NCBI GenBank assembly: GCA_963706595.1
Contig: OY970166.1
Span: forward strand, 4,448,001 to 4,512,000
Length of the DNA: 64,000 nucleotides
Origin: an uncultured cyanobacterium
Lineage (GTDB): Bacteria; Cyanobacteriota; Cyanobacteriia; Cyanobacteriales; Nostocaceae
Direction of reading: 5' to 3'
Part shown: positions 1 to 62,563 of the stretch, piece by piece
Position numbering within the stretch: position 1 is the first letter of the stretch
Layout of the letters: each line of letters starts with the position of its first letter
Notes under the pieces: model-generated
What the model saw: the letters and a program-made list of their open reading frames with translations, nothing else
Database searches by the model: none
What the model was told of the DNA's origin: nothing
Position numbers and translations under genes: made by a program

Positions 1-1299
1 TTCAGGTTGTTTGGGTCTGTATTCACCAAACTCTTCTCCCATCCAAATTAAAGGTACACCAACAGATGTCATCAGAATAGCTGCTGCCAATTTAGCTCTG
101 TTAAACCCTTCTTCCTCAAAAATCTGCCGATTAGCCAGTTCAAGCATAGTCCGTTCATGGTCGTGGTTAGTCAGATAATTAACCACATTGGTTGTACCCA
201 TAAAGCCTTGACGTTTACCATCAATCACATCTTTGAGGCTTTCTAAATCAAAAGTATCGCCACAAATATGCACCGTAATTGTATGACGGAAACTGTCGTG
301 CCAACAACCATCCATTGGTCCATCTATATTGGTAATACTGGTAGTTTCTGGGATGTGTTCGGCAATGTTATAAAAACTCCTAGTACCAGCAGTAGCTTTG
401 GCTTCTTGAACAATCCAATGCATGAAATCATAGTTAGCAATTTGTCTGGCTGCATCATAGCGAATACCATCTATATGATATTCTCTAATCCAAAAACGAA
501 TTGTATCACCAATAAACTTTCGGGCTGGGTAAGTGTCTAAAATTTCGTCGTAATGTTCGTAATTAAACTCAGGACCCCAGTTATTTTCAACGTCACGCGG
601 AGAATGGTGATACCAATAATCATGATCAATTTGAGTTAATGGACTTGAAGCTTCTGAGTGGTTATATATGCCATCCATAATTACCCGAATGCTTCTACTA
701 TGACATTGATCAATTAGCTGCTTTAACTCAACGGTAGAACCATAACTAGATTCGGTGGCAAAGAAATAACAAGGATTATAACCCCAGCTATAACTTCCTG
801 GATATTCTTTGATGGGCATCAACTCAATAGCGTTGATTCCTAATTCACACAAATAATCTAACTTTTCAATGACGTGTTTATATTTTCCTCTGGCGTGTCG
901 GTCATCTTCACCACCAGAAAAATCACCAACGTGCAATTCATAAATTACTAATTCATGGTCAGCAGGTAGAGGTTTATCATCATGTTTCCAAACGTAAGTA
1001 TCAACAATTCTTTCTCCATCTTTGATGCGGACAATACCGTGATCTTCGCCACTGGCTCCATTAATGTCAGTTGCGTAAGGATCTATCACATCAACCCACT
1101 GTTCTGGTTCAAAAAACCATGAATTTGACTGAACCCTGAATTTATATTCATAGATGCCATCTTCTAGTTCAACATTCGTCCGAAAATAGCCATCTTCGCC
1201 CCTGTCCATGGAGATTTCTTGCCAATTAGAAAAGGAGCCAATTAATGCGACTCCTTTGTTGTAAGGCGCAAATAAATTAAATTCAACGGGTGCTGCCAT
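1..1299 (-). CDS. GH13 alpha-amylase-family glycosyl hydrolase with N-terminal CBM48-like domain (runs off the left edge of the window)
   Basis: Not in the ORF track. Manual translation from ATG at 1299: MAAPVEFNLFAPYNKGVALIGSFSNW...IYELHVGDFSGG...GINAIELMPIKEYPGSYSWGYNP...GIRYDAARQI...YLTNHDH, which are GH13 conserved regions. Confidence 0.85.
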   Translation of the reverse strand, partial: MAAPVEFNLFAPYNKGVALIGSFSNWQEISMDRGEDGYFRTNVELEDGIYEYKFRVQSNSWFFEPEQWVDVIDPYATDINGASGEDHGIVRIKDGERIVDTYVWKHDDKPLPADHELVIYELHVGDFSGGEDDRHARGKYKHVIEKLDYLCELGINAIELMPIKEYPGSYSWGYNPCYFFATESSYGSTVELKQLIDQCHSRSIRVIMDGIYNHSEASSPLTQIDHDYWYHHSPRDVENNWGPEFNYEHYDEILDTYPARKFIGDTIRFWIREYHIDGIRYDAARQIANYDFMHWIVQEAKATAGTRSFYNIAEHIPETTSITNIDGPMDGCWHDSFRHTITVHICGDTFDLESLKDVIDGKRQGFMGTTNVVNYLTNHDHERTMLELANRQIFEEEGFNRAKLAAAILMTSVGVPLIWMGEEFGEYRPKQPE

Positions 1300-1476
1300 A
1301 AGATGATTTTGATTAAAAAATGTAGATGTGAATATCTTCTAAATTATTAATCAATTTGCAAACCAGTCTTTAGAGATATTTATGTAACTGCTTCATCTAT
1401 CTGAAGTTAGATTCTCTTGTATCAAAATGGGTTGTTGATTGAGTATTAATTGCTGAGATTACTCATGATTAAATTA

Positions 1477-1592
1477 TATAGCAATTCGATTTAATTCCTA
1501 AAATAAGTTGTATAGGCAGGGAACAGAGAACAGCAAAGCAGGAATCCAGGACTACCGAGTTTTTTCACAAAAAATTAAATAGGAGTCCTATA
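1477..1592. mobile_element. Short MITE-like element with imperfect terminal inverted repeats
   Basis: Ends TATAGCAATTCGATTTAATT ... AATTAAATAGGAGTCCTATA. A related left end (TATAGGAATCCGATTTGATT) occurs at about 49007. Confidence 0.5.
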
Positions 1593-1664
1593 GTATAATG
1601 CTCACTATTATTAGGTATAAATATTTATTTGAAAATCATTCATTTTTTATTTTTTCTGCTCAAT

Positions 1665-2042
1665 TTAGTCAATTTTGCCGTTAGTTTCTTGTAAATAACT
1701 TAATAACCAATTTGCGGCTGTGGCTCTACGAGTCTGTCGCGGTCCAAATTCACCAATTTTGTAACCTTTGAAACCCAACTTTTCTTTCGCTATTTGTTTA
1801 TTTTCTTGAGGAATAGAACGAGTTAATTTGACTGTAGCTGGGCGACTATCAATAAAGTCAGGTGGTTCTGGGTACTCATCTCGCCATGCTGATGCAACTT
1901 CGCTATTATCCCATTTGTCAGTTGAAGTGTTATGGCGATAGCCTAAGTAGTGCCAGACTAATTGATTGACTGTGGCATCATCAATTTGCTCATTAAAAAT
2001 TGCCCAGATTGTTTCTGTATTCAGTGGTGGTAAATTAGACAT
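1665..2042 (-). CDS. Conserved cyanobacterial protein (DUF1823-like)
   Basis: 125-aa ORF; the motifs WHYLGYR, RPATVKLTRSIP, KEKLGFKGYKIGE and TRRATAANWLL are recognisable. Confidence 0.75.
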   Translation of the reverse strand: MSNLPPLNTETIWAIFNEQIDDATVNQLVWHYLGYRHNTSTDKWDNSEVASAWRDEYPEPPDFIDSRPATVKLTRSIPQENKQIAKEKLGFKGYKIGEFGPRQTRRATAANWLLSYLQETNGKID

Positions 2043-2250
2043 AAGCGATGAAAATTTTACAATTCACGTGTGACTAAATTCGATTCTGTCCAGCAGTTAG
2101 GCTGACTTTGATCAACTCCTACAGATCAGGATGATTTTATCTCTTTCTACACCTACTGAAAAAGTTATCCGCAAAAACGACAAGTGTTTGAGTGAAAAAT
2201 TCGGTTGTGCGTCCACAAAACAGGTAAACTTGAAATCGTAAAGCATTGAC

Positions 2251-2559
2251 TTGTCTATGCAGAATCCTACATCACTGCCCAAGATAGTCCGCGCCCATGT
2301 ATTGATTTCCGGTCGAGTACAAGGGGTAGGCTATCGCTATGCGACTGTCGATACAGCTAGCCAGTTGGGTTTAACCGGTTGGGTGCGGAATCTCCCTGAT
2401 AACAGTGTGGAGGCAGTTTTTGAAGGGGCGCGGGTGGTTGTGGAAGAGATGGTTCGCTGGTGTCACACTGGCCCCCCGGCTGCGGTGGTGAAAGATGTTG
2501 TGCTTGAGTATCAAAAACCTGAAGGTTTGCGGGGGTTTGAAGTTAGGCGCTTTGAGTAG
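2251..2559 (+). CDS. acyP: Acylphosphatase
   Basis: Signatures GRVQGVGYR and GWVRNLPD..VEAVFEG; the start may be the ATG at 2257. Confidence 0.92.
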   Translation: MSMQNPTSLPKIVRAHVLISGRVQGVGYRYATVDTASQLGLTGWVRNLPDNSVEAVFEGARVVVEEMVRWCHTGPPAAVVKDVVLEYQKPEGLRGFEVRRFE

Positions 2560-2574
2560 CCCTTTTCTAAACAT

Positions 2575-2663
2575 TATGGTAGTTGAGGCTTTGCGAAACC
2601 CAACAAATGCTGTGGATGTTACTGGGAAAATGTTGGGTTTCACTGCGTTCTACCCAACCTACC
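2575..2663. repeat. REP-like inverted doublet
   Basis: GAAACCCAACA ... TGTTGGGTTTC inverted pair ending ACCCAACCTAC (GTAG motif on the minus strand). Confidence 0.55.
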
Positions 2664-2689
2664 ATAATTTTTCTACAACATTAAGTAGG

Positions 2690-3020
2690 TTGGTTGAGTC
2701 GGACAAGTCTTCGGTTTTGCAACCTACCAAGCTATTCGACTCAGTTTTATATTCGGAGGTCGTCGCCTTCCTCGCTGGTTCAGGTCTGGACTCCCGATTG
2801 TACGCCCGATAAATTCCCATTTATCAGCTCTGACCTTTGGGAGTACTCACGCCACAGCCACAGCCACCACGCGAAAACCAACATTGTTGTTACGATTCGC
2901 GCGCGCGTTATGATTGCGATTGGCAGAACGGCAATTCCTAGCGTTGTTGATCCAACTACCGCCACGCAGCAGCTAAAATCGACCTGCCCCATCCTCAAAT
3001 TTTCAACTGAATGAGAAATT
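2690..3020 (-). ncRNA. Predicted DGR RNA (5' leader, template repeat and structured spacer)
   Basis: Spans the TR. Hairpins at 2808-2825 (GATAAAT-TCCC-ATTTATC) and 2695-2743 (TGAGTCG/CGACTCA), with a predicted promoter at 3027-3055. Ends are estimated. Confidence 0.55.
2846..2973 (-). repeat. DGR template repeat (TR)
   Basis: 128-bp ungapped near-copy of 3163-3290, rich in AAC/AAT codons (TGG ATC AAC AAC GCT AGG AAT TGC ... AAT CAT AAC ... AAT CGT AAC AAC AAT GTT GGT TTT CGC). There are 14 mismatches to the VR, 13 of them at TR adenines. Confidence 0.93.
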
Positions 3021-3026
3021 TGATTA

Positions 3027-3055
3027 AATGTAGTGTATAATAGATTTGATATCAA
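3027..3055 (-). promoter_or_regulatory. Putative sigma70-type promoter for the TR RNA
   Basis: Minus strand TTGATA (3055-3050), 17-nt spacer, TACATT (3032-3027), about 55 nt upstream of the TR. Confidence 0.45.
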
Positions 3056-3081
3056 GACACCAGATTTGATAAAAAATTTTT

Positions 3082-3095
3082 CCGCCTGACGGCGG
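3082..3095 (-). other. GC-rich hairpin downstream of the VR (DGR target-recognition hairpin candidate)
   Basis: CCGCC-GTCA-GGCGG on the minus strand, about 70 nt after the target stop codon and following a pyrimidine-rich tract. Confidence 0.55.
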
Positions 3096-3162
3096 GGGAA
3101 AGAAGGGAAAAGAATAAGAAGTGCAGAGGGCAAAAGGGCAAGAGTGTAAAGGGCAAGGAATC

Positions 3163-3290
3163 CTCACGCCACAGCCACAGCCACCACGCGAAAACCAACA
3201 GTGTTGTCACGAGTCGCGCGCGCGAGAGGATCGCGATTGGCAGAACGGCAAGCACTAGCGAGGAGGATCCAACTACCGCCACGCAGCAGC
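3163..3290 (-). repeat. DGR variable repeat (VR1), at the 3' end of the FGE-domain gene
   Basis: Encodes LLRGGSWILLASACRSANRDPLARATRDNTVGFRVVAVAVA* and differs from the TR almost only at TR adenines. Confidence 0.93.
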
Positions 3291-6235
3291 CGATAATCAT
3301 TATCATTCCCATTTAGCCAAGCACTTCCGTCTGTGGGCGCTGCCTCGTAATTTTCGTTATATATATCTTGGCACCATTCCCATATATTACCATGCATATC
3401 GTACAAACCGAAAGAGTTTGGCAAAAAATTTCCGACATCTGTTGTTTGTCTACGACTTTCACCTTTTGGGGCTGAGGCGTAGGGAAAGTTACCGTCGTAG
3501 TTAACTAAATCTGTGGTTATGGTTTCACCAAAAGAGAAGGGTGTGGTTGTTCCCGCACGACAAGCATATTCCCATTCAGCCTCGCTGGGTAGCCTGTATT
3601 TGCGTCCTGTACTTTGACTCAATTTTTCACAAAATTCTACAGCATCATCCCAAGTCACTTGTTCTACAGGTCGTTTATCACCTTTGAAATTAGCAGGATT
3701 TGTCCCCATAATTGCTTGATACTGCGCCTGGGTAACTGGATATTTCCCCATGAAGAAGGCAGGAACATTAACCAGATGCTGGGGACTTTCACTATCGAAT
3801 CTTTCTGCTTCCTCTGGTGGTGAACCCATCAAAAAAGAACCGCCAGAAATCGCCACCATTTGCAGAGTTACGCCATTACCTACATTTTCTACAAACTGGT
3901 CTGCTGTGCGGTTGTCTCTGGCAACAATATTTCCCTGTGCATTGACTGCTACGATTTTAAATTCAAAAAAAGTCTGTAAAAAAAGAGAATCATAATTAGG
4001 TATATTATAATTCCGACTAGGATTTTGGGTAATTTGATGTGTTACCACTGATGTCAGTAAACCCACACCTCCCCAACTAAGCCAAGTTAAAAATTTCCTG
4101 CGGCTGATTATCGGGGAAATAGAATTATTCGATTTAACAAAACTCGGCTGGTGAATTGATGGCTGAGTCACTATTCCCAACTTTCGTAATTTTTTCTGTC
4201 TTTGGAGTGAGCGACTAAAATCATCTGATACTTTCATGGTAAGTACAGATTGTTTTGTCATAAAGCCGAGAAAAAGATAATCCCGTAATAGACTATCTTG
4301 AGAAGCTGGTTTAGATAATAAAGAACGGATGGAATTAGCTAATTTGGTTAAAAAACTAGGAGCTTGTGTTGCTATTTCTAACTGTAATTTGCTGAACGCG
4401 GAACCTAACCCCCTAGCCCCCTTCCCTACCAGGGAAGGGGGAACATTCAAAGCCTCTCCCCTTGTAGGGTAGAGTTTTGGAGAGGGGTTTTCCTGATCCT
4501 GTGGAAAGTCAGAACCTTGAACAGCCGTATTTAATAAATCTTCTAGCGCATTACGAATAATCTGCTGTTGTTCTGGGGTGAGTGTTGTCATCAGGTAAAC
4601 ACGCAACCAGTCTGGCATATAACCAGAACGCAGCCACGGTAAACGAGCCAAATCAGTCAAGGAACACACTTCTAATAGAGATTTTCCTGACTCTGTGGTG
4701 AGAACGTTACCCAGATAAATAGTAATATTCCAATGCAATTCCGGAAAAACCGCACAAGCACTCAACCAATAAAAACTATCCTGTCCAAGATATTTCTCCA
4801 GCGACTCCAGCATGAGATTAATCTGCTCAGATGGGGGAGGATTCCGTTCTATCCAGAGATAAGGTTGTGTCCGTAATGAATCTGGTAGAGGTATTGGCGT
4901 TTTTTCCGCCAGAAAATAAGTTGCTACACCCTGGCGTAGTCTTTGACTTAGCACCTGTAAGCCTTTAAGTGTTGCGGGTAAAATAATAAACTGTTGTGCA
5001 AGTTCTAATTCCTGATATCTCCAGTTTTCTACAGGAGTGGGTGTTAGAAATGCCCGGTTTTCCCAGTCTGTCAATTGATTTACCCAAGGTTCTAATTCAC
5101 CACTAATAGAGCTAAAAAAGTTATCTGTATCGGAGATAATAATTAGACAATGCTGACTGTATTTTGATGTAATTTCTCTGAGTCTAAGTGGGAAGCTTCC
5201 TGGCTGATGGGGAAAACACATTCTTGGGTCATCATCGAAGAAATAGATAGTAGTAAATACGCCTTCATCTTGTAAGCGCTCAATTATTTCTTCTACAAAT
5301 TTAGCTTGATGATCTCGATAGCTGGTGCGGTTAACCAGAAATAGATACTCAGGGAGAATTTGATAAGTACGATAAACTGGAGTTAGCCATCCGCCTCGGC
5401 TGAGAGTTGCATTAATAGTTTTATTGACATCAAGTTCATGAGATGGAATCTGAATTCTATATCTTAAACTCTGGGCAATTTGGCGCAAGACAATATGAGA
5501 AACTAATTTATCTTCACAGCCAGCAATAGAAATTTTGTTTAATTCGGGTTGTTTTGTTGTACTATAACGTTGCAAAAACAGATTAGCACGCCATTGCGAT
5601 CTCAAAATGAGAAATGCAACTGAGATAGTTAGATAAAGTAGTAAAATTTGCCAATTTAAAGGTAAAGTTTCCGGAGGATCTGTTTTTGTAATTTCTCCTC
5701 TGGGAGGCACTTGTGGAAGTGGTCCCGTTGCTGGTGGGGGTAATACTGGGGTTGTTGTTTCTCCTGTTGGTCGTGGTTGTCTGAAAGACCTCTTCTCTAT
5801 GGGGGATGGGAATAAGATAATATATACAAAACATAGAAGAAAAATAGTAATTAAAGTTAGCAGTCTGAGTTGCTGCATCCCATAGGAGACAGAGGGTATT
5901 TTTTCTGGTTCGACTGGATGTGGTAGAGTTTCTAGGGTTGCTTTTTCTGTTAAGAAATTAGTTCGGCTAGATAACTGAACCCATCTGTCAAAACGTTGTG
6001 GAAATTCTTCCTGCTCAATGGGTGAACTACACAAAATTGGCCCTAACAAATTTCTCAGATTCTCTGGACTATCCAATGTTGTACCCCGATCAATCAACAT
6101 CAAGATTAAATTTTGGGCTGCAATATACTGAGATATGCCAATTTTGTAACCTGCTGCTCTTAGTTCATCGATGAACTCGATCAAATCATCAGGATTTAGC
6201 CAGTTTAGATTGTTTTTGTCTGTTCCTGTATCCAC
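3164..6235 (-). CDS. DGR target protein: vWA-like region, transmembrane segments and C-terminal FGE-sulfatase (CLec-fold) domain
   Basis: FGE motifs FLMGS, YPVTQAQY, RLPSEAEWEYACRAG, PNSFGLYDMHGNIWEWC, RGGSW...GFRVV. The segment ELDVNKTINAT...PEYLFLVNR is typical of MoxR-partner vWA proteins. Three hydrophobic stretches. Confidence 0.85.
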   Translation of the reverse strand: MDTGTDKNNLNWLNPDDLIEFIDELRAAGYKIGISQYIAAQNLILMLIDRGTTLDSPENLRNLLGPILCSSPIEQEEFPQRFDRWVQLSSRTNFLTEKATLETLPHPVEPEKIPSVSYGMQQLRLLTLITIFLLCFVYIILFPSPIEKRSFRQPRPTGETTTPVLPPPATGPLPQVPPRGEITKTDPPETLPLNWQILLLYLTISVAFLILRSQWRANLFLQRYSTTKQPELNKISIAGCEDKLVSHIVLRQIAQSLRYRIQIPSHELDVNKTINATLSRGGWLTPVYRTYQILPEYLFLVNRTSYRDHQAKFVEEIIERLQDEGVFTTIYFFDDDPRMCFPHQPGSFPLRLREITSKYSQHCLIIISDTDNFFSSISGELEPWVNQLTDWENRAFLTPTPVENWRYQELELAQQFIILPATLKGLQVLSQRLRQGVATYFLAEKTPIPLPDSLRTQPYLWIERNPPPSEQINLMLESLEKYLGQDSFYWLSACAVFPELHWNITIYLGNVLTTESGKSLLEVCSLTDLARLPWLRSGYMPDWLRVYLMTTLTPEQQQIIRNALEDLLNTAVQGSDFPQDQENPSPKLYPTRGEALNVPPSLVGKGARGLGSAFSKLQLEIATQAPSFLTKLANSIRSLLSKPASQDSLLRDYLFLGFMTKQSVLTMKVSDDFSRSLQRQKKLRKLGIVTQPSIHQPSFVKSNNSISPIISRRKFLTWLSWGGVGLLTSVVTHQITQNPSRNYNIPNYDSLFLQTFFEFKIVAVNAQGNIVARDNRTADQFVENVGNGVTLQMVAISGGSFLMGSPPEEAERFDSESPQHLVNVPAFFMGKYPVTQAQYQAIMGTNPANFKGDKRPVEQVTWDDAVEFCEKLSQSTGRKYRLPSEAEWEYACRAGTTTPFSFGETITTDLVNYDGNFPYASAPKGESRRQTTDVGNFLPNSFGLYDMHGNIWEWCQDIYNENYEAAPTDGSAWLNGNDNDYRLLRGGSWILLASACRSANRDPLARATRDNTVGFRVVAVAVA
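4392..4512. repeat. GC-rich cyanobacterial palindromic repeat element inserted in frame in the CDS
   Basis: GAACCTAACCCCCTAGCCCCCTTCCCTACCAGGGAAGGGGG...CCTCTCCCC...GGAGAGGGG. The same start (GAACCTAACCCC..CCCCTTCCC) occurs intergenically at 63241. Boundaries are approximate. Confidence 0.65.
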
Positions 6236-7209
6236 TGTTCTACAATTTTTTTAGCTTTTTCTTGATCATCAGCAGTTTTAATTAAGCTACTCAAAGTACC
6301 AAAAACTACTTCGGGTTGCAGTAAAGGATTTTCTGATGGACTATGAAACTTTCGTAAAATTATTAGCCAACCCAATAATTCAGCCGTTGCGGGTTTTTTC
6401 CTCAAACCACTTTGGGGGGAACGTAACCTGTAAAATAAGTTAAGGGCTGCTTGCAAAAATGGACTACTACTACCAGCATTAATATTGAAACGATTAGCGA
6501 CAATCTCAGCCAGTCGCTCAATTTTGGGAAAAGGAACGTTGTAATAAATGCAACGCCTGAGAAAAGCATCAGGTAAATCTTTTTCAGAATTGCTGGTAAT
6601 AATTATAATTGGTTGTAATTCTGGTTCGGCGGCAATTTTTTCATTTCCTAACTCTGGAATCCGAAAATACATTAACTCCAATTCGTTGAGTAAATCATTG
6701 GCGAAATCACGAGGTGCTTTATCAATTTCATCAATTAAAACTACTGAACGTGTTTTTTGAGAATGTCGAGTTTCTAATGACAATAAATCTTTAACTTCAT
6801 CTGGATTTTTAGTGTGTAAAATTGCTGTTCCTAAAGCTTGAAAAGTGATGTAATCTAAAAATTTAGTTGAATCAACCCCACTTTGCACATCTTGGAATCG
6901 CTTTAAGGCATCATAAGTATAGAATAAGTCACGAGCAACGCTAGTGGACTTAGTTTCAAACTTTAACGGCTGTTCCAGTCCAAGTTCCCAAGCCAGACTG
7001 TAAGCTAGTTGAGTTTTACCGGTTCCTGGTTCGCCGGTCACAAGTAGGGGTTGTCCTAATAACAGGGCTACATTACACGCATCTTTCAAGCCTGAATCTG
7101 CAATATAATTCTTTGGCTGGAGTAATTGAGAACGGGGAGAAGTTGGCACTTTTACTGGTAAATCCAATTGTTTGCGAGTTCCATCACCTGAGTAAAAGGG
7201 GTAATTCAT
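6205..7209 (-). CDS. MoxR-family AAA+ ATPase
   Basis: Walker A GEPGTGKT, Walker B VVLIDEIDKA, TSNSEKDLPDAFLRRC, KKPATAELLGW; overlaps both neighbouring genes. Confidence 0.9.
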   Translation of the reverse strand: MNYPFYSGDGTRKQLDLPVKVPTSPRSQLLQPKNYIADSGLKDACNVALLLGQPLLVTGEPGTGKTQLAYSLAWELGLEQPLKFETKSTSVARDLFYTYDALKRFQDVQSGVDSTKFLDYITFQALGTAILHTKNPDEVKDLLSLETRHSQKTRSVVLIDEIDKAPRDFANDLLNELELMYFRIPELGNEKIAAEPELQPIIIITSNSEKDLPDAFLRRCIYYNVPFPKIERLAEIVANRFNINAGSSSPFLQAALNLFYRLRSPQSGLRKKPATAELLGWLIILRKFHSPSENPLLQPEVVFGTLSSLIKTADDQEKAKKIVEQWIQEQTKTI

Positions 7210-8319
7210 GCTGATTCATCCTGTAGGAGGGGTTTGACTAATTCAACTAATTTTTCAGCTAAATCATGCATGGGAATCGTATCAGAGTATGTTTGTTCTT
7301 CCCAAGATTCAAACATCTCTCCAACTCTTTGAATTAATGGTTCAATCATGGCTTCTCCCACTAGCTTTCTAGTATCTTCACTACGTACCCAATTTTCCAC
7401 TTCGCCCTGATTTATTCCTTCTAATTCTGGCAGAACGATTACAGAGAGAGGTTGAAAATGATTAAAATTTGAGTTAGCTAATTTTTCGAGATACTGGCGA
7501 ACTCTTTTATTTATCTGCTGACATCGATATTGTTTAGAAAAAACGCGTGAAAAACTGAATATCCACTTTATCCAGAGTTTTTTGGCAGATTTGTTGCGTT
7601 TGTTTTTATATTTAATCGATATGTAAATAATTAATTTTTGACTGATTACTGTTTCATGTAAATGATTACAAAATTCCAAGAGTTTATTCAAAATTTCAAA
7701 TTCTTGTTTTTGCAAATCTTCTGTAAGTAAAGTGGTATAAAGTATAATTGGTTCTGGATAATTGTTTAAATAATCGGTGATTTTTTCCAAAGAGTAGAAA
7801 CTATTTCCCAAAACACCCTTTGTTAGACTTTTATATAACTCATTTCGTAGTTGATGCAAATTTTTTAATTTTGAAGGACATTCCAGTTGATATGTTGTCT
7901 TACTAATTGATTGGTGTGAAAGTATCTCTAGCCATTTAGGGAGAGCAAAGGTTTGTATGCGTTCTAAAAAGTTGTGATGACATTGGGATTCATCTCCATG
8001 AACAATGCAAACTAAATGACCAGGAGAATCTTGCTTGAGAAATTTCAGAAATGTTTCACCTAGTTGTGATTCCTGTTCTTTCCGGTTGGTTAAATAGGGT
8101 AGGAGTGGTGGAAGTTCTTTTTTAAATGGAGTCGGGGGTTTTTGGAAACTGCTTGACCCACTTTGATGAAAGGTAACATTTTTGGACGTGTTGGAAATTT
8201 AGAGCCTGTCCATTATCCAATTGACCAATACTCTGCCCAAAATTTTGACCTACTTCCTGCTGAATTTCATTCTTTGACTGGGGTGGTTGAGGTTCTCCCT
8301 GGTTTGGTTCTTGAGTCAT
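7206..8319 (-). CDS. iSTAND-like protein with N-terminal Q/N/G-rich motif; one single-base frameshift at about 8180
   Basis: The frame of ORF 7206..7859 stays open up to 8198 (NVTFHQSGSS...LLPYLTNRKEQ...LVCIVHGDESQCHHNFLERI, a degenerate P-loop). Removing one A from the A5 run at 8179-8183 joins it to the ORF that starts at 8319, giving about 370 aa. Confidence 0.7.
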
Positions 8320-58176: not shown

Positions 58177-61100
58177 ATGAGTGAGAAATTTGACCAGTTA
58201 ATTAGAGTATTACAAAAAGAATTAAAGCTAACTGGTACAGAAATCGCTGAAATTCTCTGGTTAGCACAACAAACCTCGTCTAATTTTTCTGGTCAAAAAA
58301 TACAAGATTCATCTAATGAACCAAAAACAATAATTAAAGATGTACCAGAAGATATACCAGCAGATATACCAAAAGACAGACCATTTGATATACTAAGTGA
58401 CCCACCCCCACCAACAAATGTTATTCAGCCAGAACCATCAACTGCTGTAGTTACTCCTCAAACCTCAAAGACATCTTCTGGTAGCGGTTTATCGATAAAG
58501 CTTCCTGACCGTTCATCTCTTCCTTATCCCTTAAAAATTGCTAAAGCATTACGTCCTTTAATTCAATATATTGCCTTTGGTAAAGCAGTTTTGTTAGATG
58601 AAAATGCCACAGTTGAACTGACTGCTGAATTAAATGGAGTCTGTATTCCTGTTCTGAAACCGCAACTAGAATTAAGATTTGATTTAACAGTAGTAATCGA
58701 TAAAAGTGATTCTATGATTTTTTGGCAAGGCATAACCAAAGAATTAGAACAAATTTTAAAACATTATGGTATTTTTCGCAATATTCAAACTTTTGGTATG
58801 GTGGAAAATGAGCAAGGAGATATTTGTTTAAGACAAGAAATAAGTAAAAAAAAATATTCAACTCAGAAATTAATTGATCCTAGTGGTCGTCGTTTAATCT
58901 TAGTAGTGAGTGATTGTGTTAGTGAAATTTGGCGCAATGGCAAAGCTTTTGATTTATTAAAAATTTGGGGTAAACATAATGTTGTAGCTATTGTGCAAAT
59001 GTTACCGGAAAAAATGTGGTTAAGAACTGGCTTGAGTTTAGGCACAATGGTACAGTTAGATAGTTTAATTCCCGCAGTATCCAATCGTAATTTATTCATT
59101 AAAGAAATTTTAATTTGGGATTATATTGATCAAAATTCTATCAAAGTTCCTGTTTTTAGCCTAACACAAAATTCTATAGAAACTTGGAGTCAAATGGTAA
59201 CAGGAAAAGGAAATATAGGTGCAGGTGGCTTTGCATTTTCTTCTCTTCAAGAGCAAGAGAAAGAAAGTGATGAGCAATCACAATTAACTATTGAAGAAAG
59301 AATACACAATTTTCGTGTGAGTTCCTCCCCCGTAGCCAGAAAATTAGCCAGTTTATTAGCGTCTGCACCTGTAATTAATTTGCCTGTAGTGCGTTTAATT
59401 CAAAATTTAATTAATAAAAATAATAATTTAGAACTTCCTCAAATTCATGTCATAGCTGAAGTATTTTTAGGTGGTATTTTAAAACCTACCAAAGAAATTA
59501 CACCAGATACTGACCCAGATTATGTTCAATATCATTTTATTGATGAAAAAATTAGAGATAGCTTACTTTCAGACAGTTCCAGAGTCAAGTCACGGGAAAT
59601 AATTGAAATTATTTCTGAATATTTTGCTAAACAACTGGGAAAAAATCTTAAAGAATTTTATGCGTTGTTAAAAAAGCCAGATGAGTTAGAAAAATTAAAA
59701 ACCGAGAAGAATGTTACAGATTTTGATGTCAAACATTTTGCCACTATCACTACCAAAGTTTTAAAACGTTTAGGAGGAGATTATGCTCGATTTGCTGAAG
59801 AAATTGAACAGTCTCAAAATCCACAACGAAAAGATACCGAACCTAGCATTTTTCAAGTATTTGCTGGAGAATACACTTGTTCAGTTAAATGGGGTGGAGA
59901 AACAGGTATTTGGCGTAAAGAATCACAACCAGAACATTTATGGATTTCTCCACAAGGTGAAGTGCAGTTTCGTTCTCGTTTTGGGTTGGCGGTAATTCAA
60001 AATTTAACTATAAATGAGCAAAGGTTATCTTGGAATTTTGGTGATAATCAAACTGCTGCTAGTATCACTTTTAAGGTAAATAGCGAAGATAGCTACTTTT
60101 GGGGAGATAATCAAACAGGAAAGTTATTTCAAGGATGGTTGAATTATCCCAAGGAAGGCAAAATAGATTTTCGAGGTAGGTTGGTAATTAGTGACCCATT
60201 ACAAGGTTTCCCTCCAATTCAAGATTTAACCTTTGAAGCCGTAAATATTTCTGTTGAGGATGATGATGTAAATTACAACCTGCAATCTTTTGAGTTTGAA
60301 GTTGCGCTCATCACAGGAATTAAAGAAGCTAATACAACTAATCCTATAGAAGTTGCTAATAATTTAGTATTTTCCCAGACAGAAAAACATTTGACTGAAG
60401 TTGAACAGCTAATTATACAAGAAACAATATCAGATAAAACTTATGAGCAAATCGCAGCATCATCAAATTGCTCTACAGAATACCTAAAAGAATTAGCATA
60501 TCGATTATGGGAAATTTTTTCAACAGCTTTGGGTGAAAAAGTTAATAAAAGAAATTTCAAGAATGTTATTCAACTGCAAGTAAATAATTCTCTAATAAAT
60601 ATTCGTCGTAGTCGTCAAACAGCCAATTATTTTATTGAAGAATTGAATGGTGTTCAACTAGAAATGGTGTCTATTCCTGAAGGCAATTTTACGATGGGGT
60701 CGCCAAAAGAGGAACCAGCGCGTTTTAGTGATGAAAGTCCTCAACACGAAGTAACTGTTCCAGCTTTCTTCATGGGCAAATACACAGTAACACAAGCACA
60801 GTGGCAAGCAGTGGCATATCTGCCGCAAGTTAACCGAGAACTAAAGCCTGACCCTTCTAAATTTAAGGGTGCAAATAAACCTGTAGAGCAAGTTTCTTGG
60901 TACGATGCAGTTGAATTTTGTCAGCGTCTTACTGCCCATACAAAAAGACAGTATCGCCTACCCAGCGAAGCAGAATGGGAATATGCCTGTCGTGCTGGAA
61001 CTACTAGCCCATTTCACTTTGGTGAGACAATCACATCAGAATTGGCTAACTATGATGCTACCTCCATTTATGGCAGGGGTGTAAAAGGAAGCTACAGAGA

Positions 61101-61422
61101 GGAGACTACACCTGTGGGCAGTTTTAAAGCAGCTAACAACTTTGGACTATACGATATGCACGGAAATGTATGGGAATTGTGTCTTGATGATTGGCATAGT
61201 AATTATGAAGGAGCGCCAGGAAATGGTAGTGCGTGGTTTGATGATAATAATAACCTTTCTCAAAAGCAAGGAAAAGCCTTACTGCGGGGCGGTTCCTGGG
61301 TCTACTCTCCTAAGTACTGCCGTTCTGCGTCTCGCAGCAACGATCTTAGGGCGGAGCGCGTCGATGTCAAATACAGTATCGGTTTTCGTGTTGTCTGTGC
61401 TGTTGGCAGGATTCTTCAGTAG
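58177..61422 (+). CDS. vWA-like (SAV_2336-type) protein with HTH and C-terminal FGE-sulfatase domain; probable DGR target
   Basis: EIAEILWLA, IAKALRPL, LDENATV, VVIDKSDSM, LILVVSDCVS..W, QMLPEKMW; HTH-like LTEVEQL...TYEQIA...LGEKVNKRNFK; full FGE motif set. Confidence 0.85.
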   Translation: MSEKFDQLIRVLQKELKLTGTEIAEILWLAQQTSSNFSGQKIQDSSNEPKTIIKDVPEDIPADIPKDRPFDILSDPPPPTNVIQPEPSTAVVTPQTSKTSSGSGLSIKLPDRSSLPYPLKIAKALRPLIQYIAFGKAVLLDENATVELTAELNGVCIPVLKPQLELRFDLTVVIDKSDSMIFWQGITKELEQILKHYGIFRNIQTFGMVENEQGDICLRQEISKKKYSTQKLIDPSGRRLILVVSDCVSEIWRNGKAFDLLKIWGKHNVVAIVQMLPEKMWLRTGLSLGTMVQLDSLIPAVSNRNLFIKEILIWDYIDQNSIKVPVFSLTQNSIETWSQMVTGKGNIGAGGFAFSSLQEQEKESDEQSQLTIEERIHNFRVSSSPVARKLASLLASAPVINLPVVRLIQNLINKNNNLELPQIHVIAEVFLGGILKPTKEITPDTDPDYVQYHFIDEKIRDSLLSDSSRVKSREIIEIISEYFAKQLGKNLKEFYALLKKPDELEKLKTEKNVTDFDVKHFATITTKVLKRLGGDYARFAEEIEQSQNPQRKDTEPSIFQVFAGEYTCSVKWGGETGIWRKESQPEHLWISPQGEVQFRSRFGLAVIQNLTINEQRLSWNFGDNQTAASITFKVNSEDSYFWGDNQTGKLFQGWLNYPKEGKIDFRGRLVISDPLQGFPPIQDLTFEAVNISVEDDDVNYNLQSFEFEVALITGIKEANTTNPIEVANNLVFSQTEKHLTEVEQLIIQETISDKTYEQIAASSNCSTEYLKELAYRLWEIFSTALGEKVNKRNFKNVIQLQVNNSLINIRRSRQTANYFIEELNGVQLEMVSIPEGNFTMGSPKEEPARFSDESPQHEVTVPAFFMGKYTVTQAQWQAVAYLPQVNRELKPDPSKFKGANKPVEQVSWYDAVEFCQRLTAHTKRQYRLPSEAEWEYACRAGTTSPFHFGETITSELANYDATSIYGRGVKGSYREETTPVGSFKAANNFGLYDMHGNVWELCLDDWHSNYEGAPGNGSAWFDDNNNLSQKQGKALLRGGSWVYSPKYCRSASRSNDLRAERVDVKYSIGFRVVCAVGRILQ
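61282..61422 (+). repeat. VR-like region 2
   Basis: 141 nt, collinear with 62423-62563; nonsynonymous differences cluster in NNY codons. Confidence 0.65.
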
Positions 61423-61501
61423 CCCTTTATACTTTTTCTCTTTTGTCCTTTACCCTTCTTTTTTTCCTTTTTTAGCGGAGCGATCTTTTTTTAAAAAATA
61501 C

Positions 61502-61717: not shown

Positions 61718-62563
61718 ATGTCCAAAATAGTTATAAACAGAACGCAAAAGACAGCCCAATACTATGTAGAAGATTTGGGCGATGGAATTGGGTTAGATAT
61801 ACTGCTGATTCCTGGGGGTAGTTTTATGATGGGTTCACCAGAGAATGAACTGGAACGCAGGGAATCAGAAAGCCCCCAGCATTTAGTAAATATTCAACAA
61901 TGTTGCATGGGTAAATATCCAATCACTCAACCACAGTGGAAAGCTGTTGCAGCGTTAGCAAAGGTGAATAAAGACCTAGACGCTGACCCCTCTAAATTTA
62001 AGGGTGTAAATAGACCTGTAGATCGAGTCTCTTGGTACGATGCAGTTGAATTTTGTCAGCGTCTTACTGCCTACACAAAAAGGGAGTACCGTCTACCTAG
62101 TGAAGCAGAATGGGAATATGCCTGTCGTGCTGGAACTACTAGCCCATTTCACTTTGGTGAGACAATCACATCAGAATTGGCTAACTATAGAGCTACTGAA
62201 ACTTATGGCAGGGGTGTAAAAGGAATTTATAGAAAGGAGACTACACCTGTGGGCAGTTTTAACGCAGCTAACAACTTTGGACTATACGATATGCACGGAA
62301 ATGTATGGGAATGGTGTCTTGATGATAGGCACGAAAACTATGAAGGAGCGCCAACAGATGGCAGAGCTTGGTTTAATGATAATAATAATGATAATATTTA
62401 CCAAAAAAAAGGAAGATCCTTACTGCGGGGCGGGTCCTGGTACGACAATCCTAGAGGCTGCCGTTCCGCGTCTCGCGGCAGTCTCACTAGGGCGGAGCGC
62501 GACAACCGCAACCACAGTTTTGGTTTTCGTGTTGTTTGCGCTGTTGGGAGGACTTTTAAGTAG
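61718..62563 (+). CDS. Stand-alone FGE-sulfatase (CLec-fold) domain protein; probable DGR target
   Basis: Close paralogue of the C-terminal domain of 58177..61422, sharing RLPSEAEWEYACRAGTTSPFHFGETITSELANY. Confidence 0.85.
   Translation: MSKIVINRTQKTAQYYVEDLGDGIGLDILLIPGGSFMMGSPENELERRESESPQHLVNIQQCCMGKYPITQPQWKAVAALAKVNKDLDADPSKFKGVNRPVDRVSWYDAVEFCQRLTAYTKREYRLPSEAEWEYACRAGTTSPFHFGETITSELANYRATETYGRGVKGIYRKETTPVGSFNAANNFGLYDMHGNVWEWCLDDRHENYEGAPTDGRAWFNDNNNDNIYQKKGRSLLRGGSWYDNPRGCRSASRGSLTRAERDNRNHSFGFRVVCAVGRTFK
62423..62563 (+). repeat. VR-like region 3
   Basis: Encodes LRGGSWYDNPRGCRSASRGSLTRAERDNRNHSFGFRVVCAVGRTFK*; retains AAT/AAC codons. Confidence 0.65.

Follow-up and report, generated by a model that had tools for sequence, protein, structure and literature searches.

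In the DGR of Bordetella phage BPP-1, cDNA synthesis is described as requiring 20 nt upstream of the template repeat (TR) and the whole of a 140-nt Spacer (PMC6182149). Among cyanobacteria, Trichodesmium erythraeum IMS101 has an abundant TR-RNA of 265 nt whose own promoter lies downstream of the RT gene, and in the sequenced strain the RT is inactivated, the TR is still expressed and the variable repeats (VRs) are frozen (PMC4143802), while in Nostoc punctiforme the TR-RNA is reported to be very highly expressed, with A-specific diversity seen in culture (PMC12691664). Loci short of machinery are also on record: Thiohalocapsa PB-PSB1 is said to carry degenerate DGR loci, some of them diversified in trans, in an account that also gives MoxR-type ATPases as a known context of DGR targets (PMC10907252), and at all3226 of Nostoc PCC 7120 a TR-VR pair lacking an RT is treated as a remnant in one sentence (PMC7517822). 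RT-less TR/VR loci are hence already in print (PMC7517822, PMC10907252) and not unprecedented. DGR surveys, as described, begin from the RT and seek repeats within about 10 kb (PMC6602519, PMC8144416); therefore, templates distant from any RT are systematically missed or dismissed as remnants.

The locus considered here, cassette A, lies in a window of 64,000 nt (genome 4448001-4512000) from an uncultured cyanobacterium of the Nostocaceae. We read it, at a probability of about 0.7, as a satellite DGR cassette with a private template RNA, which would have been served in trans and frozen in this genome since a recent deletion in the RT.

Repeat pair and target gene

A repeat search of window positions 1-8000 returned a single direct-repeat family, with copies at 2840-2973 and 3157-3290 (spacing 317, 88% identity). 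Within these, TR and VR align without gaps over 128 nt on the minus strand (2973 to 2846 against 3290 to 3163) with 14 mismatches, as originally noted. Thirteen fall where the non-coding copy has an adenine (7 A>C, 3 A>G and 3 A>T), and the remaining one is a G>T at window 2937/3254 beside mutated adenines. For a TR with 25 A in 128 nt, the binomial probability of at least 13 of 14 mismatches at A is 6.9e-9; in the VR frame, 13 of the 14 also fall at codon positions 1-2, and there is 1 non-A mismatch per 103 non-A sites. The VR ends one base past the TGA stop of the target ORF, and Pfam FGE-sulfatase is found in that ORF at residues 792-1018 (E 2.6e-56). The A bias, the bias to codon positions 1-2 and the Pfam match bear out the earlier claim of a DGR TR/VR pair on an FGE/CLec domain: the two stretches are a genuine DGR template/target pair. 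It is scarcely credible that this is no DGR but an ordinary duplicated gene end, with differences that settled on adenines by chance. That account has the bare existence of a repeat on its side and nothing else, and is opposed by the two biases, by the recurrence of the A pattern in 9 further cassettes (mismatches at A of, e.g., 14/14, 14/14 and 11/11) and by homologous TR-element units that adjoin DGR RT-Avd genes.

The ends of the repeats had been likened to IMH and IMH*, which is not upheld in that form. TR and VR are unrelated immediately beyond the repeat, as claimed, but they are identical up to the last base (...GCGTGAG), and this shared end block, G/T/C-rich and without A for the last ~36 nt before the final GAG, displays no difference of the IMH versus IMH* kind. 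The short distances noted earlier stand, with 189 nt (3162-2974) between VR and TR and 286 nt between TR and acyP (Table 1); no avd is found at the cassette or in the window, and no DGR-clade RT within 170 kb of the TR.

The target gene is overlapped by the AAA ATPase gene immediately upstream, and the overlap suggests that the two may form an operon, of which the 217-aa ORF is probably the first gene. Such an ATPase beside the target corresponds to the MoxR-type context described for DGR targets (PMC10907252). On the other side, blocks related to the one just 3' of the VR sit after other FGE genes of the same genome. This block, with its GC hairpin 68-81 nt past the VR end, could act as terminator for the target gene, as a DGR target-site hairpin or in both roles, and the hairpin may be a terminator only.

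Table 1. Features of cassette A, its neighborhood and the remote RT (window positions unless marked as genome)
Feature	Position	Strand	Description
acyP	2251-2559		Pfam Acylphosphatase
Structured RNA element	2690..2845	-	156 nt, directly 3' of TR; consensus of 41 pairs in 6 helices, two GNRA-type loops
Template repeat (TR)	2846..2973	-	reads LLRGGSWINNARNCRSANRNHNARANRNNNVGFRVVAVAVA* in VR frame; 25 A, 24 at codon positions 1-2
Template-RNA leader	2974..3017	-	short hairpin TTCTCA...TGAAAA plus GAGGATGGGGCAGG block
Promoter-like site for template RNA	3027..3055	-	-35 TTGATA, 17-nt spacer, -10 TACATT; consensus match only
Block just 3' of VR	3075..3162	-	pyrimidine-rich on gene strand; ends in GC hairpin 3082-3095, then A/T run
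Variable repeat (VR)	3163..3290	-	encodes LLRGGSWILLASACRSANRDPLARATRDNTVGFRVVAVAVA*; ends at stop codon
Target gene	3164..6235	-	1023 aa; C-terminal FGE-sulfatase (C-type-lectin fold), aa 792-1018
AAA ATPase gene	6205..7209	-	Pfam AAA, AAA_5; immediately upstream of target, overlaps it
217-aa ORF	7206..7859	-	no Pfam match; overlaps start of ATPase gene
DGR-type RT	genome 4623926-4624840		304-aa open frame; aligns to 1-298 of 352

Template-RNA module and RT-less relatives

Around the TR, a promoter-like site, a leader and a covarying element together look like a module for a template RNA of its own, in keeping with the original prediction that the cassette supplies one. A second cassette of this genome (cassette B) and satellites in other genomes conserve the promoter-like region. 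In canonical RT-TR loci the leader has a homologue in the ~45 nt that directly precede the TR, inside the 3' end of the RT gene; the hairpin there is CTCTCG...CGAGAG, a compensatory change relative to the cassette hairpin. The 3' arm reads TGAGAA in most satellites as against TGAAAA here, with one C.A mismatch in cassette A. The origin of these ~45 nt in the 3' end of an RT gene marks a canonical RT-TR-element unit as the ancestor of the module.

Cassettes A and B agree at 95-96% of positions in the structured element, against ~82% in the TR (22 differences over 125 aligned positions). The element is present in 101 of the 201 genomes of the family and in 51 of its 68 genera. In an alignment of 53 sequences that was fitted to a covariance model, 96.8% of cells are paired, a share that drops to 32-48% once the partners are slid, and 29 of the 41 pairs are changed on both sides, values that 0 of 500 shuffles reached; RNAalifold on 29 sequences reports compensatory changes in 12 of the 41. 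Single-sequence folding of 2680-2980 is uninformative (z = -0.98), the structure becoming clear only with alignments. A search of 2400-3500 against Rfam gave no family at E <= 1 except V_AS5, a chance match that lies in a dispersed repeat (2565-2678) and scores 19 bits, where the gathering score is 96.

Public runs were compared as contigs only; none contains the locus, the best share of the stretch's sampled words being 0.22. In one RNA run of a relative (X4), a 349-nt unitig over 2855-3200 has a depth of 1416 against 29.6 for the target-gene contig, which is a hint only, as contig depths cannot rank gene parts and DNA carry-over is possible. The element at 2690-2845 is without cover in four aligned public runs (contigs only), from which nothing is concluded.

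The RT-less layout recurs well beyond this locus. Cassette B (genome 3654017-3654621) shares 81% identity with window 2690-3319 across 634 nt, and contiguous VR-spacer-TR-element homology extends to 9 further loci, none of which has an RT or Avd within 1.5 kb. Comparison with related strains in this respect upholds the absence of a local RT as a shared trait: the architecture is common to cassettes in at least 9 genomes, and any DGR-type RT, or piece of one, that turned up in the genomes with satellites is hundreds of kb off or on another contig. The satellite layout consists of the end of an FGE gene with the VR, a spacer of ~190 nt, the TR and the conserved element, and cassette A fits it. 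With a homologous spacer, this layout occurs on three different target genes in the genus and on orthologues in other genera; therefore, the loss of the RT is old, and the earlier suggestion of a recently truncated local DGR does not fit, since several genera diverged after the layout arose. In the family's canonical loci the order is avd-RT(352 aa)-TR-element (L043, L052 and L056), with RT-linked elements of the same genus only 75-78% identical to the satellite element. The exact element core occurs at 67 loci. Of these, 32 count as satellites by having the cassette spacer ahead of the TR, 1 is RT-linked, and 24 have a full FGE gene directly abutting the element. Judged from these genomes, an enzyme-less cassette family is widespread in Nostoc-like cyanobacteria, and the cassette would be non-autonomous by design.

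The sequences of the repeats themselves speak to how such cassettes were maintained. In 45 pairwise comparisons among 10 cassettes, the TRs of a pair differ at 1-24 non-A sites, at which the VR bears the base of its own TR nearly always and that of the other TR at 0-3 sites. The TR of cassette A has a private change, CAT against AGG in 10 other TRs and in four aligned public runs, and its VR has the C and the T. Since each VR matches its own TR at diverged non-A sites, rewriting of the cassettes postdates their divergence, and this implies that an enzyme worked in trans; we infer that this service came from an RT-Avd encoded elsewhere. The predicted borrowing of RT and Avd in trans fits both the RT-less layout and this match of each VR to its own TR, but present-day activity of the cassette is doubtful, as the RT of this genome is truncated.

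These observations bear on the possibility that the locus is a plain relic, i.e., a complete local DGR (target-avd-RT-TR) that lost avd and RT, never used a remote enzyme and has yet to decay. The derivation of the ~45 nt before the TR from the RT gene would agree with this, as would the commonness of DGR decay in the family, with its many RT fragments, and the published reading of the all3226 pair as a remnant (PMC7517822). Nevertheless, we regard it as improbable: the loss of the RT is old and its outcome is shared across target genes and genera; TRs that have diverged at up to 24 non-A sites are still matched by their own VRs; conservation extends to the promoter-like site, the leader hairpin and the element, which is better conserved than the TR; and satellites stand at 32 of the exact-core loci against only 1 that is RT-linked.

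The satellite cassette reading can be spelled out as follows. A private template-RNA gene would begin ~190 nt past the VR and comprise the promoter-like site, the ~45-nt leader with its hairpin, the 128-nt TR and the ~150-nt 3' element; it would be transcribed on its own into a template RNA of ~330 nt, with putative ends. A DGR RT-Avd complex from elsewhere would recognize the leader and the 3' element, much as bRT-Avd does the avd-TR-Spacer RNA in phage BPP-1, and make an adenine-mutagenized cDNA of the TR. This cDNA would replace the neighboring VR and so diversify the ligand-binding tip of an ATPase-associated, sensor-like protein.

The remaining RT and the state of the cassette

All five RVT_1 matches of the genome fall outside genome 4448001-4512000, in agreement with the earlier statement that the 64 kb hold no recognizable RT. 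The genome-wide profile search that had been proposed does find one DGR-class RT with an Avd, 173 kb from the TR, but this RT is truncated. Its best PDB match is Bordetella bRT (8ub7, E 1.9e-48), and the single bAvd gene adjoining it (PF22296, E 1.8e-19) is intact. In a full-length relative the alignment continues to bRT residue 315; the segment missing here aligns to bRT residues 275-315 and to the region after the palm in the GsI-IIC RT, is kept by all 70-odd full-length relatives, and was found by tblastn nowhere else in the genome. The other RVT_1 proteins, of 557 aa (two identical copies), 748 aa and 1182 aa, have 23-27% identity to DGR RTs, the 557-aa pair being taken as of group-II-intron type by sequence appearance only.

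A TR at the RT locus was considered and rejected. Sensitive blastn of genome 4622500-4627500 against the genome returned no internal TR-like repeat, and the VR of the RT-adjacent TIR-FGE gene differs from the TR of cassette A at 50 of 124 aligned positions without an A bias.

The covariance model (R1) recovers only the two cassette elements in the whole genome, the RT locus scoring 6 bits, and finds element remnants of 47 and 50 bits at the same RT locus in two congeners. A single deletion took the last ~54 residues of the RT (~297-352) together with its own TR and element. That the truncation is shared with the congener G134, and hence old, is ruled out: G134 keeps the 3' half of the element, which is absent here, and this genome keeps RT residues 129-296, which are absent in G134, so that the deletions are independent because each genome retains a part that the other lost. 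Against G134, dN/dS is 0.09 for avd (dS 0.22) and 0.10 for RT(1-128) (dS 0.17); therefore, the enzyme was under selection until recently. As the only DGR-type RT has lost its tail, TR and element, cassette A was most likely frozen by this recent deletion, and its present state is probably that of a recently frozen cassette.

An alternative that we hold to be unlikely is that the cassette is still active, either because the 304-aa RT works without its ~54 C-terminal residues, because another RT substitutes for it, or because an intact RT resides on an unassembled replicon. In its favor are the almost clean TR/VR pair (1 non-A mismatch in 103 sites), a VR whose writing postdates the private change in the TR, the open frame of the truncated RT with an intact Avd alongside, the strong purifying selection on both relative to G134 (dN/dS about 0.1), the four other RVT_1 genes, and an assembly that, as a single 5.57-Mb contig rated 94% complete, leaves room for an RT on an unassembled plasmid. 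However, the lost segment is universal among the full-length relatives and has no second copy that tblastn could find in the genome, the other RVT_1 proteins are distant from DGR RTs, and cassette B, with 14 of 18 mismatches at A, has 4 non-A mismatches in 97 non-A sites. Some decay has begun in the cassettes, as seen in these 4 mismatches of B and in the C.A mismatch of the leader hairpin of A.

Across 9 genomes, no clean correlation was found between RT integrity and TR/VR cleanliness. Non-A mismatches amount to 0/14 and 1/18 in genomes with an intact RT (G156 and G046), to 0/14, 0/11 and 0/6 in drafts in which an RT fragment or no DGR-type RT was found (G175, G184 and G180), and to 4/19, 7/18 and 8/17 in three other genomes with broken RTs. 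G134 is without cassette A, and the TRs are too conserved for a clock to date the CAT change relative to the RT deletion. Scanning metagenomes for the TR variant specific to this genome gave 0 matches.

Wider meaning and known systems

Taken more broadly, the odds are about even that the DGRs of Nostocales form a distributed system, in which one or a few RT-Avd genes would serve many private templates and modules would be rewritten in trans over genus-level time. If so, there would be a long-lived enzyme-less lineage (promoter, leader hairpin, TR and ~150-nt structured RNA) wired beside sensor-like targets, and many remote targets that surveys have assigned to an RT-proximal TR would own private templates. 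This could be why an excess of non-A substitutions has been reported for the cyanobacterial lineage (PMC5758913). By recombining, VR and TR could then freeze a variant or reset the gene to the template in one step, which would account for the 24 of 67 loci with a full FGE gene abutting the element. Were private templates used in trans the rule in filamentous cyanobacteria, the number of actively diversified sensor or defense proteins per genome would be underestimated. Further, the RNA features needed by RT-Avd could be read from natural, minimal, enzyme-free modules, and the module (about 330 nt plus a target end) would offer programmable targeted mutagenesis a compact design from nature, to which the enzyme is supplied separately. 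What this means for the genome studied here is more modest: the binding tip of the target is probably a recently frozen variant.

Cassette A resembles the BPP-1 DGR (mtd-avd-TR-Spacer-brt) in the A-specific transfer from TR to VR and in the C-type-lectin fold, as well as in the core of its RNA, with a short leader, a TR of ~130 nt and a structured 3' part of ~140-150 nt; the template RNA is 294 nt in BPP-1 against about 330 nt predicted here (PMC6182149). The leader hairpin and the 156-nt element occupy positions equivalent to the 20 nt upstream of the TR and the Spacer, and by position the element may be seen as an analogue of the Spacer. The RTs of the family are homologous to bRT (E 1e-46 to 1e-48), and the Avd belongs to the bAvd family. 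Unlike BPP-1, the family has the gene order avd-RT-TR-element, with the cassette studied here lacking avd and RT, its 3' element has no detectable Rfam similarity, and the VR and TR ends are identical without an IMH/IMH* difference.

Nearer in phylogeny, the DGR of Nostoc punctiforme belongs to the same bacterial family and likewise has a MoxR ATPase gene next to its targets, along with VWA and CHAT genes, but it is described as canonical, a single locus holding RT, Avd, TR and two targets (PMC12691664). The frozen state of Trichodesmium is the one proposed for cassette A; there, however, a stop codon rather than a deletion killed the RT, one TR serves 12 remote VRs, and the account mentions no private TRs at its targets (PMC4143802). 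The all3226 pair shares with cassette A the bacterial family, the CLec/FGE class of target and a TR-VR far from any RT (PMC7517822), and, likened by description, is very likely a cassette of the same kind, although its brief account speaks of no conserved RNA element, shared cassette architecture or co-evolution of TR and VR (PMC7517822). Thiohalocapsa offers several parallels, with several DGR loci per genome, machinery missing or pseudogenized at some of them, CLec targets associated with MoxR-type ATPases, and trans activity proposed from VRs that match the TR at all non-A sites (PMC10907252). Yet the trans cases described there are remote VRs that depend on the TR of a complete locus (PMC10907252), whereas here the cassette would possess a private TR and RNA module and share the enzyme alone.

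Repeat pair and target gene

The first 8 kb of the window hold a single direct repeat (2840-2973 and 3157-3290, spacing 317). When aligned without gaps on the minus strand (2973 to 2846 against 3290 to 3163), the two copies differ at 14 of 128 nt. In 13 of these positions the non-coding copy, which is the downstream one, has an adenine (7 A>C, 3 A>G, 3 A>T); the remaining mismatch is a G>T next to mutated adenines. Given the 25 adenines of the 128-nt template repeat (TR), the probability of at least 13 of 14 mismatches falling at A is 6.9e-9. The upstream copy, the variable repeat (VR), forms the final 42 codons of an FGE-domain gene, in the frame of which 24 of the 25 TR adenines occupy codon positions 1-2. 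The distances originally estimated between VR and TR (about 190 bp) and between TR and acyP (about 290 bp) are accurate, as is the statement that the window has no reverse transcriptase (RT): Pfam RVT_1 matches five places in the genome, all of them outside the window, and only one resembles the RT of a diversity-generating retroelement (DGR). The IMH/IMH* difference that had been described is not present, since TR and VR are identical through the last base and unrelated beyond it; the common block is devoid of A over the last ~36 nt before the final GAG.

An older VR is found in a kinase-FGE gene, differing from the TR of the window's cassette (cassette A) by 22 mismatches, 16 at A and 6 non-A, and two indels. 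This gene has no TR in the genome under study, and its orthologue in the congener G134 is part of a full cassette (L023). Where G134 has spacer, TR and element, our genome (3871787-3874157) has an ORF of 103 aa, a putative nucleotidyltransferase. The further FGE-domain genes are matched by no TR; they are probably DGR-type targets of the past, or ones that were never activated. At the end of the first tandem gene (window about 61373-61473), identity to the cassette VR 3' end and the pyrimidine-rich block downstream of it is ~71%.

Features of the cassette and of related loci
Feature	Coordinates or loci	Strand	Remarks
Target ORF	window 3164..6235	-	1023 aa; aa 792-1018 match Pfam FGE-sulfatase, E 2.6e-56
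VR	window 3163-3290	-	
GC hairpin and A/T run	window 3082-3095		upstream of TR
Sigma-70-like site	window 3055-3050 (-35), 3032-3027 (-10)		upstream of TR; consensus match only
Leader			~45 nt, directly before TR
TR	window 2846-2973	-	
Element	window 2690-2845	-	3' of TR
Tandem FGE-domain genes	window 58177-61422, 61718-62563	+	near window end
Further FGE-domain genes	genome 645771, 1870874, 5250757, 820222		
Kinase-FGE gene	genome 3872355-3874157		older VR
Cassette B	genome 3654017-3654621		paralogue of window 2690-3319
DGR-like RT	genome 4623926-4624840	-	
Canonical DGR locus remnant	genome 4623822-4626962		TIR-like/FGE target, avd, RT; outside window, about 173-179 kb downstream of TR
Canonical DGR locus comparison loci	L053, L098		
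FGE gene abutting element	L028, L032, L033, L035, L036, L040, L042, L044-L048, L050; 24 of the 67 loci L102-L168		

RT-less cassettes and the tracking of TR by VR

Sensitive blastn of window 2560-3320 against the whole genome (a single 5,569,666-bp contig, with the window at 4448001-4512000) recovered a paralogous block with 81% identity over 634 nt. A 692-aa gene ends in this cassette B, whose separate TR/VR pair has 14 of 18 mismatches at A and 4 in 97 non-A sites. The TRs of the two cassettes differ at 22 of 125 positions; the 156 nt after the TR (window 2845 to 2690), here termed the element, are 95-96% identical, and the homology ends exactly at 2690. Just past the element, window 2565-2680 holds one of dozens of genomic copies of a short dispersed repeat that contains a long hairpin (motifs CCAACCTAC...GTAGGTTGG, AACCCAAC) and may terminate the template RNA; a weak match of this region to Rfam V_AS5 was set aside as chance.

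Classification by context of 29 element loci, out of a set of 30 from the family sample, yielded 11 cassette-like loci, 13 with a full FGE gene abutting the element, two linked to an RT (L037, L043) and three other cases. In ten of the cassette-like loci (L021-L027, L030, L031, L039) the FGE gene end is followed by a ~320-nt gap, comprising spacer and TR-like repeat, and then the element; the eleventh, L029, has a TR-like repeat with no gene in view. No RT or Avd occurs within 1.5 kb of the cassette loci, and the RTs of cassette-bearing genomes, where found, lie hundreds of kb off or on other contigs. Homology to the window is unbroken across VR, spacer, TR and element, and the genes ended by the cassettes are orthologues of either the cassette B target (four other genera) or the kinase gene. 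TR/VR pairs were obtained for nine cassettes, none being recovered from L026 by the method used; the mismatches at A among the total are 14/14 in L022, 15/19 in L023, 9/17 in L024, 14/14 in L025, 6/6 in L027, 11/11 in L030, 11/18 in L031 and 17/18 in L039, next to the window's 13/14. Two decay routes were seen at other loci: in L037 (genome G036) the start of a caspase-like target gene is fused in frame to the middle of the RT as a 238-aa ORF, and in L051 (G031) an IS605-type (TnpB-like) ORF is inserted directly after a shortened 334-aa RT.

Across 45 pairwise comparisons of 10 cassettes, scored at the non-A positions where two TRs differ (1-24 per pair), each VR has the base of its own TR at nearly all sites and that of the other TR at 0-3, with the exceptions mainly from the decayed cassettes L031, B and L024. 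In the window, the TR of cassette A reads CAT where 10 other TRs and contigs of four public runs read AGG, and its VR has C.T at the non-A sites of this position. Thus, retrohoming went on after the TRs diverged, i.e., once the RT-less layout was already in place. The simplest reading is that the cassettes are served by an enzyme in trans, and the tracking in these 10 RT-less cassettes fits the original prediction of a cassette that borrows RT and Avd in trans. The alternative offered with it, a recently truncated local DGR, is at odds with an RT-less layout that predates TR divergence; judged from sequence, the cassette is non-autonomous by architecture and not through recent local loss.

The element has a 26-nt core that was matched exactly in 67 stretches from species-representative genomes, mostly of Nostoc, but also of Anabaena, Nodularia, Fischerella, Fortiea, Desmonostoc, Komarekiella, Goleter, Heteroscytonema and Pelatocladus, and in three MAGs labelled Leptolyngbyaceae or Chroococcales. 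A cassette spacer lies upstream of the TR in 32 of these, an FGE gene end abuts the element in 24, 10 are unclear and only one is RT-linked, which makes this element subtype mainly a satellite lineage. Many genomes have a full-length FGE gene that runs right up to the element, and neither a spacer nor a second repeat is visible there; most of these ends are VR-like (few A, no AAC) and a few purely TR-like (L035, L036, L116, L153). Direct-repeat recombination between VR and TR in a cassette would yield exactly both product types and, if true, would amount to a one-step freezing of a variant or a reset of the gene to its template. Self-templating by a VR-plus-element RNA may be an alternative for these genes.

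The remote RT and its deletion

The DGR-like RT has Bordetella bRT (8ub7, E 1.9e-48) as its best PDB match, and upstream of it lie a bAvd gene (PF22296) and an FGE-ended gene of 533 aa, whose N-terminal sequence suggests a TIR-type protein. It has 304 aa and aligns to positions 1-298, as against 352 aa in relatives, about 70 of which align to at least position 344. A full-length relative aligns through bRT residue 315 of 328, so the lost part is conserved with the studied enzyme; going by the GsI-IIC alignment range, it would sit at the thumb position of group-II-type RTs. By tblastn, the missing ~54 residues are nowhere else in the genome, nor is there a second avd. The RT locus has no TR-like repeat and, in a search with the covariance model R1, no element, and no TR in the genome matches the RT-adjacent VR.

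In two congeners this locus retains remnants of the element (47 and 50 bits), and the deleted parts differ: G134 is missing RT residues 129-352 together with the TR and the 5' half of the element, G156 is missing everything from avd to the 5' part of the element, and our genome is missing RT residues ~297-352, TR and element. An ancestral target-avd-RT-TR-element locus was thus truncated three times independently. Relative to G134, dN/dS is 0.09 for avd and 0.10 for RT residues 1-128 (dS 0.22 and 0.17), so the enzyme was maintained until recently and the deletion in our genome is young, with which the non-A TR/VR mismatches (1/103 in cassette A, 4/97 in B) agree.

The cassette most likely depended on this RT-Avd 173 kb away, and with the RT now truncated the VR has probably become frozen in this genome, the assembly being 94% complete and a plasmid possibly missing. 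Within the genus, elements linked to an RT share only 75-78% identity with the satellite element. Across nine genomes, RT integrity and TR/VR cleanliness show no clean correlation; in three of them, all drafts, no intact RT was found, yet the TR/VR pairs are clean. None of the public sequencing runs consulted was informative on this organism.

The element RNA and its parallels

The element is present in 101 of 201 sampled genomes of the same family, spanning 51 of 68 genera (E <= 1e-5). With RNAalifold, 29 copies yield 41 pairs, of which 12 show compensatory changes, and R1 matched all 40 further, more divergent fetched copies at full length (115-178 bits). In a 53-sequence alignment, itself fitted to the model, 96.8% of cells pair versus 32-48% with partners slid by 1-3 columns, both sides change in 29 of 41 pairs, and none of 500 shuffles attains the values observed. 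Rfam has no corresponding family. This covariation marks the 156-nt element as a structured RNA belonging to DGRs of the family. Canonical loci (L043, L052, L056) run from avd through an RT of 352 aa and a gap of about 25 nt to the TR and the element. The cassette leader (~45 nt) shares homology with the 3' end of the canonical RT genes; its hairpin reads CTCTCG..CGAGAG in RT-linked copies versus TTCTCA..TGAGAA in satellites, i.e., two compensatory pairs. Separately, the block just 3' of the VR (window 3096-3200) is covered by very deep short contigs in a relative's RNA run (X15); the loose ends of these contigs, at about 3048 and 3143, consist of adapter sequence. These strand-blind contigs of a relative suggest an abundant short RNA.

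VRs more than 100 kb from the RT are already known from the cyanobacterial lineage (PMC5758913), a TR-VR pair lacking an RT at all3226 of Nostoc PCC 7120 has been interpreted as a remnant (PMC7517822), and trans activity has been proposed for degenerate DGR loci of Thiohalocapsa (PMC10907252); DGR detection pipelines are RT-anchored (PMC6602519, PMC8144416). In the portions of the literature covered by our search there was no description of the conserved satellite architecture, its RNA element or TR/VR co-evolution in RT-less cassettes; an earlier one is possible. The leader, TR and element of the cassette, a unit of about 330 nt, mirror the core DGR RNA of BPP-1, which consists of 20 nt of avd, the TR and a 140-nt Spacer; cDNA synthesis there requires all three parts and starts from Spacer A56 as the primer (PMC6182149). 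In Trichodesmium, a 265-nt TR-RNA is transcribed from a separate promoter situated downstream of the RT (PMC4143802).
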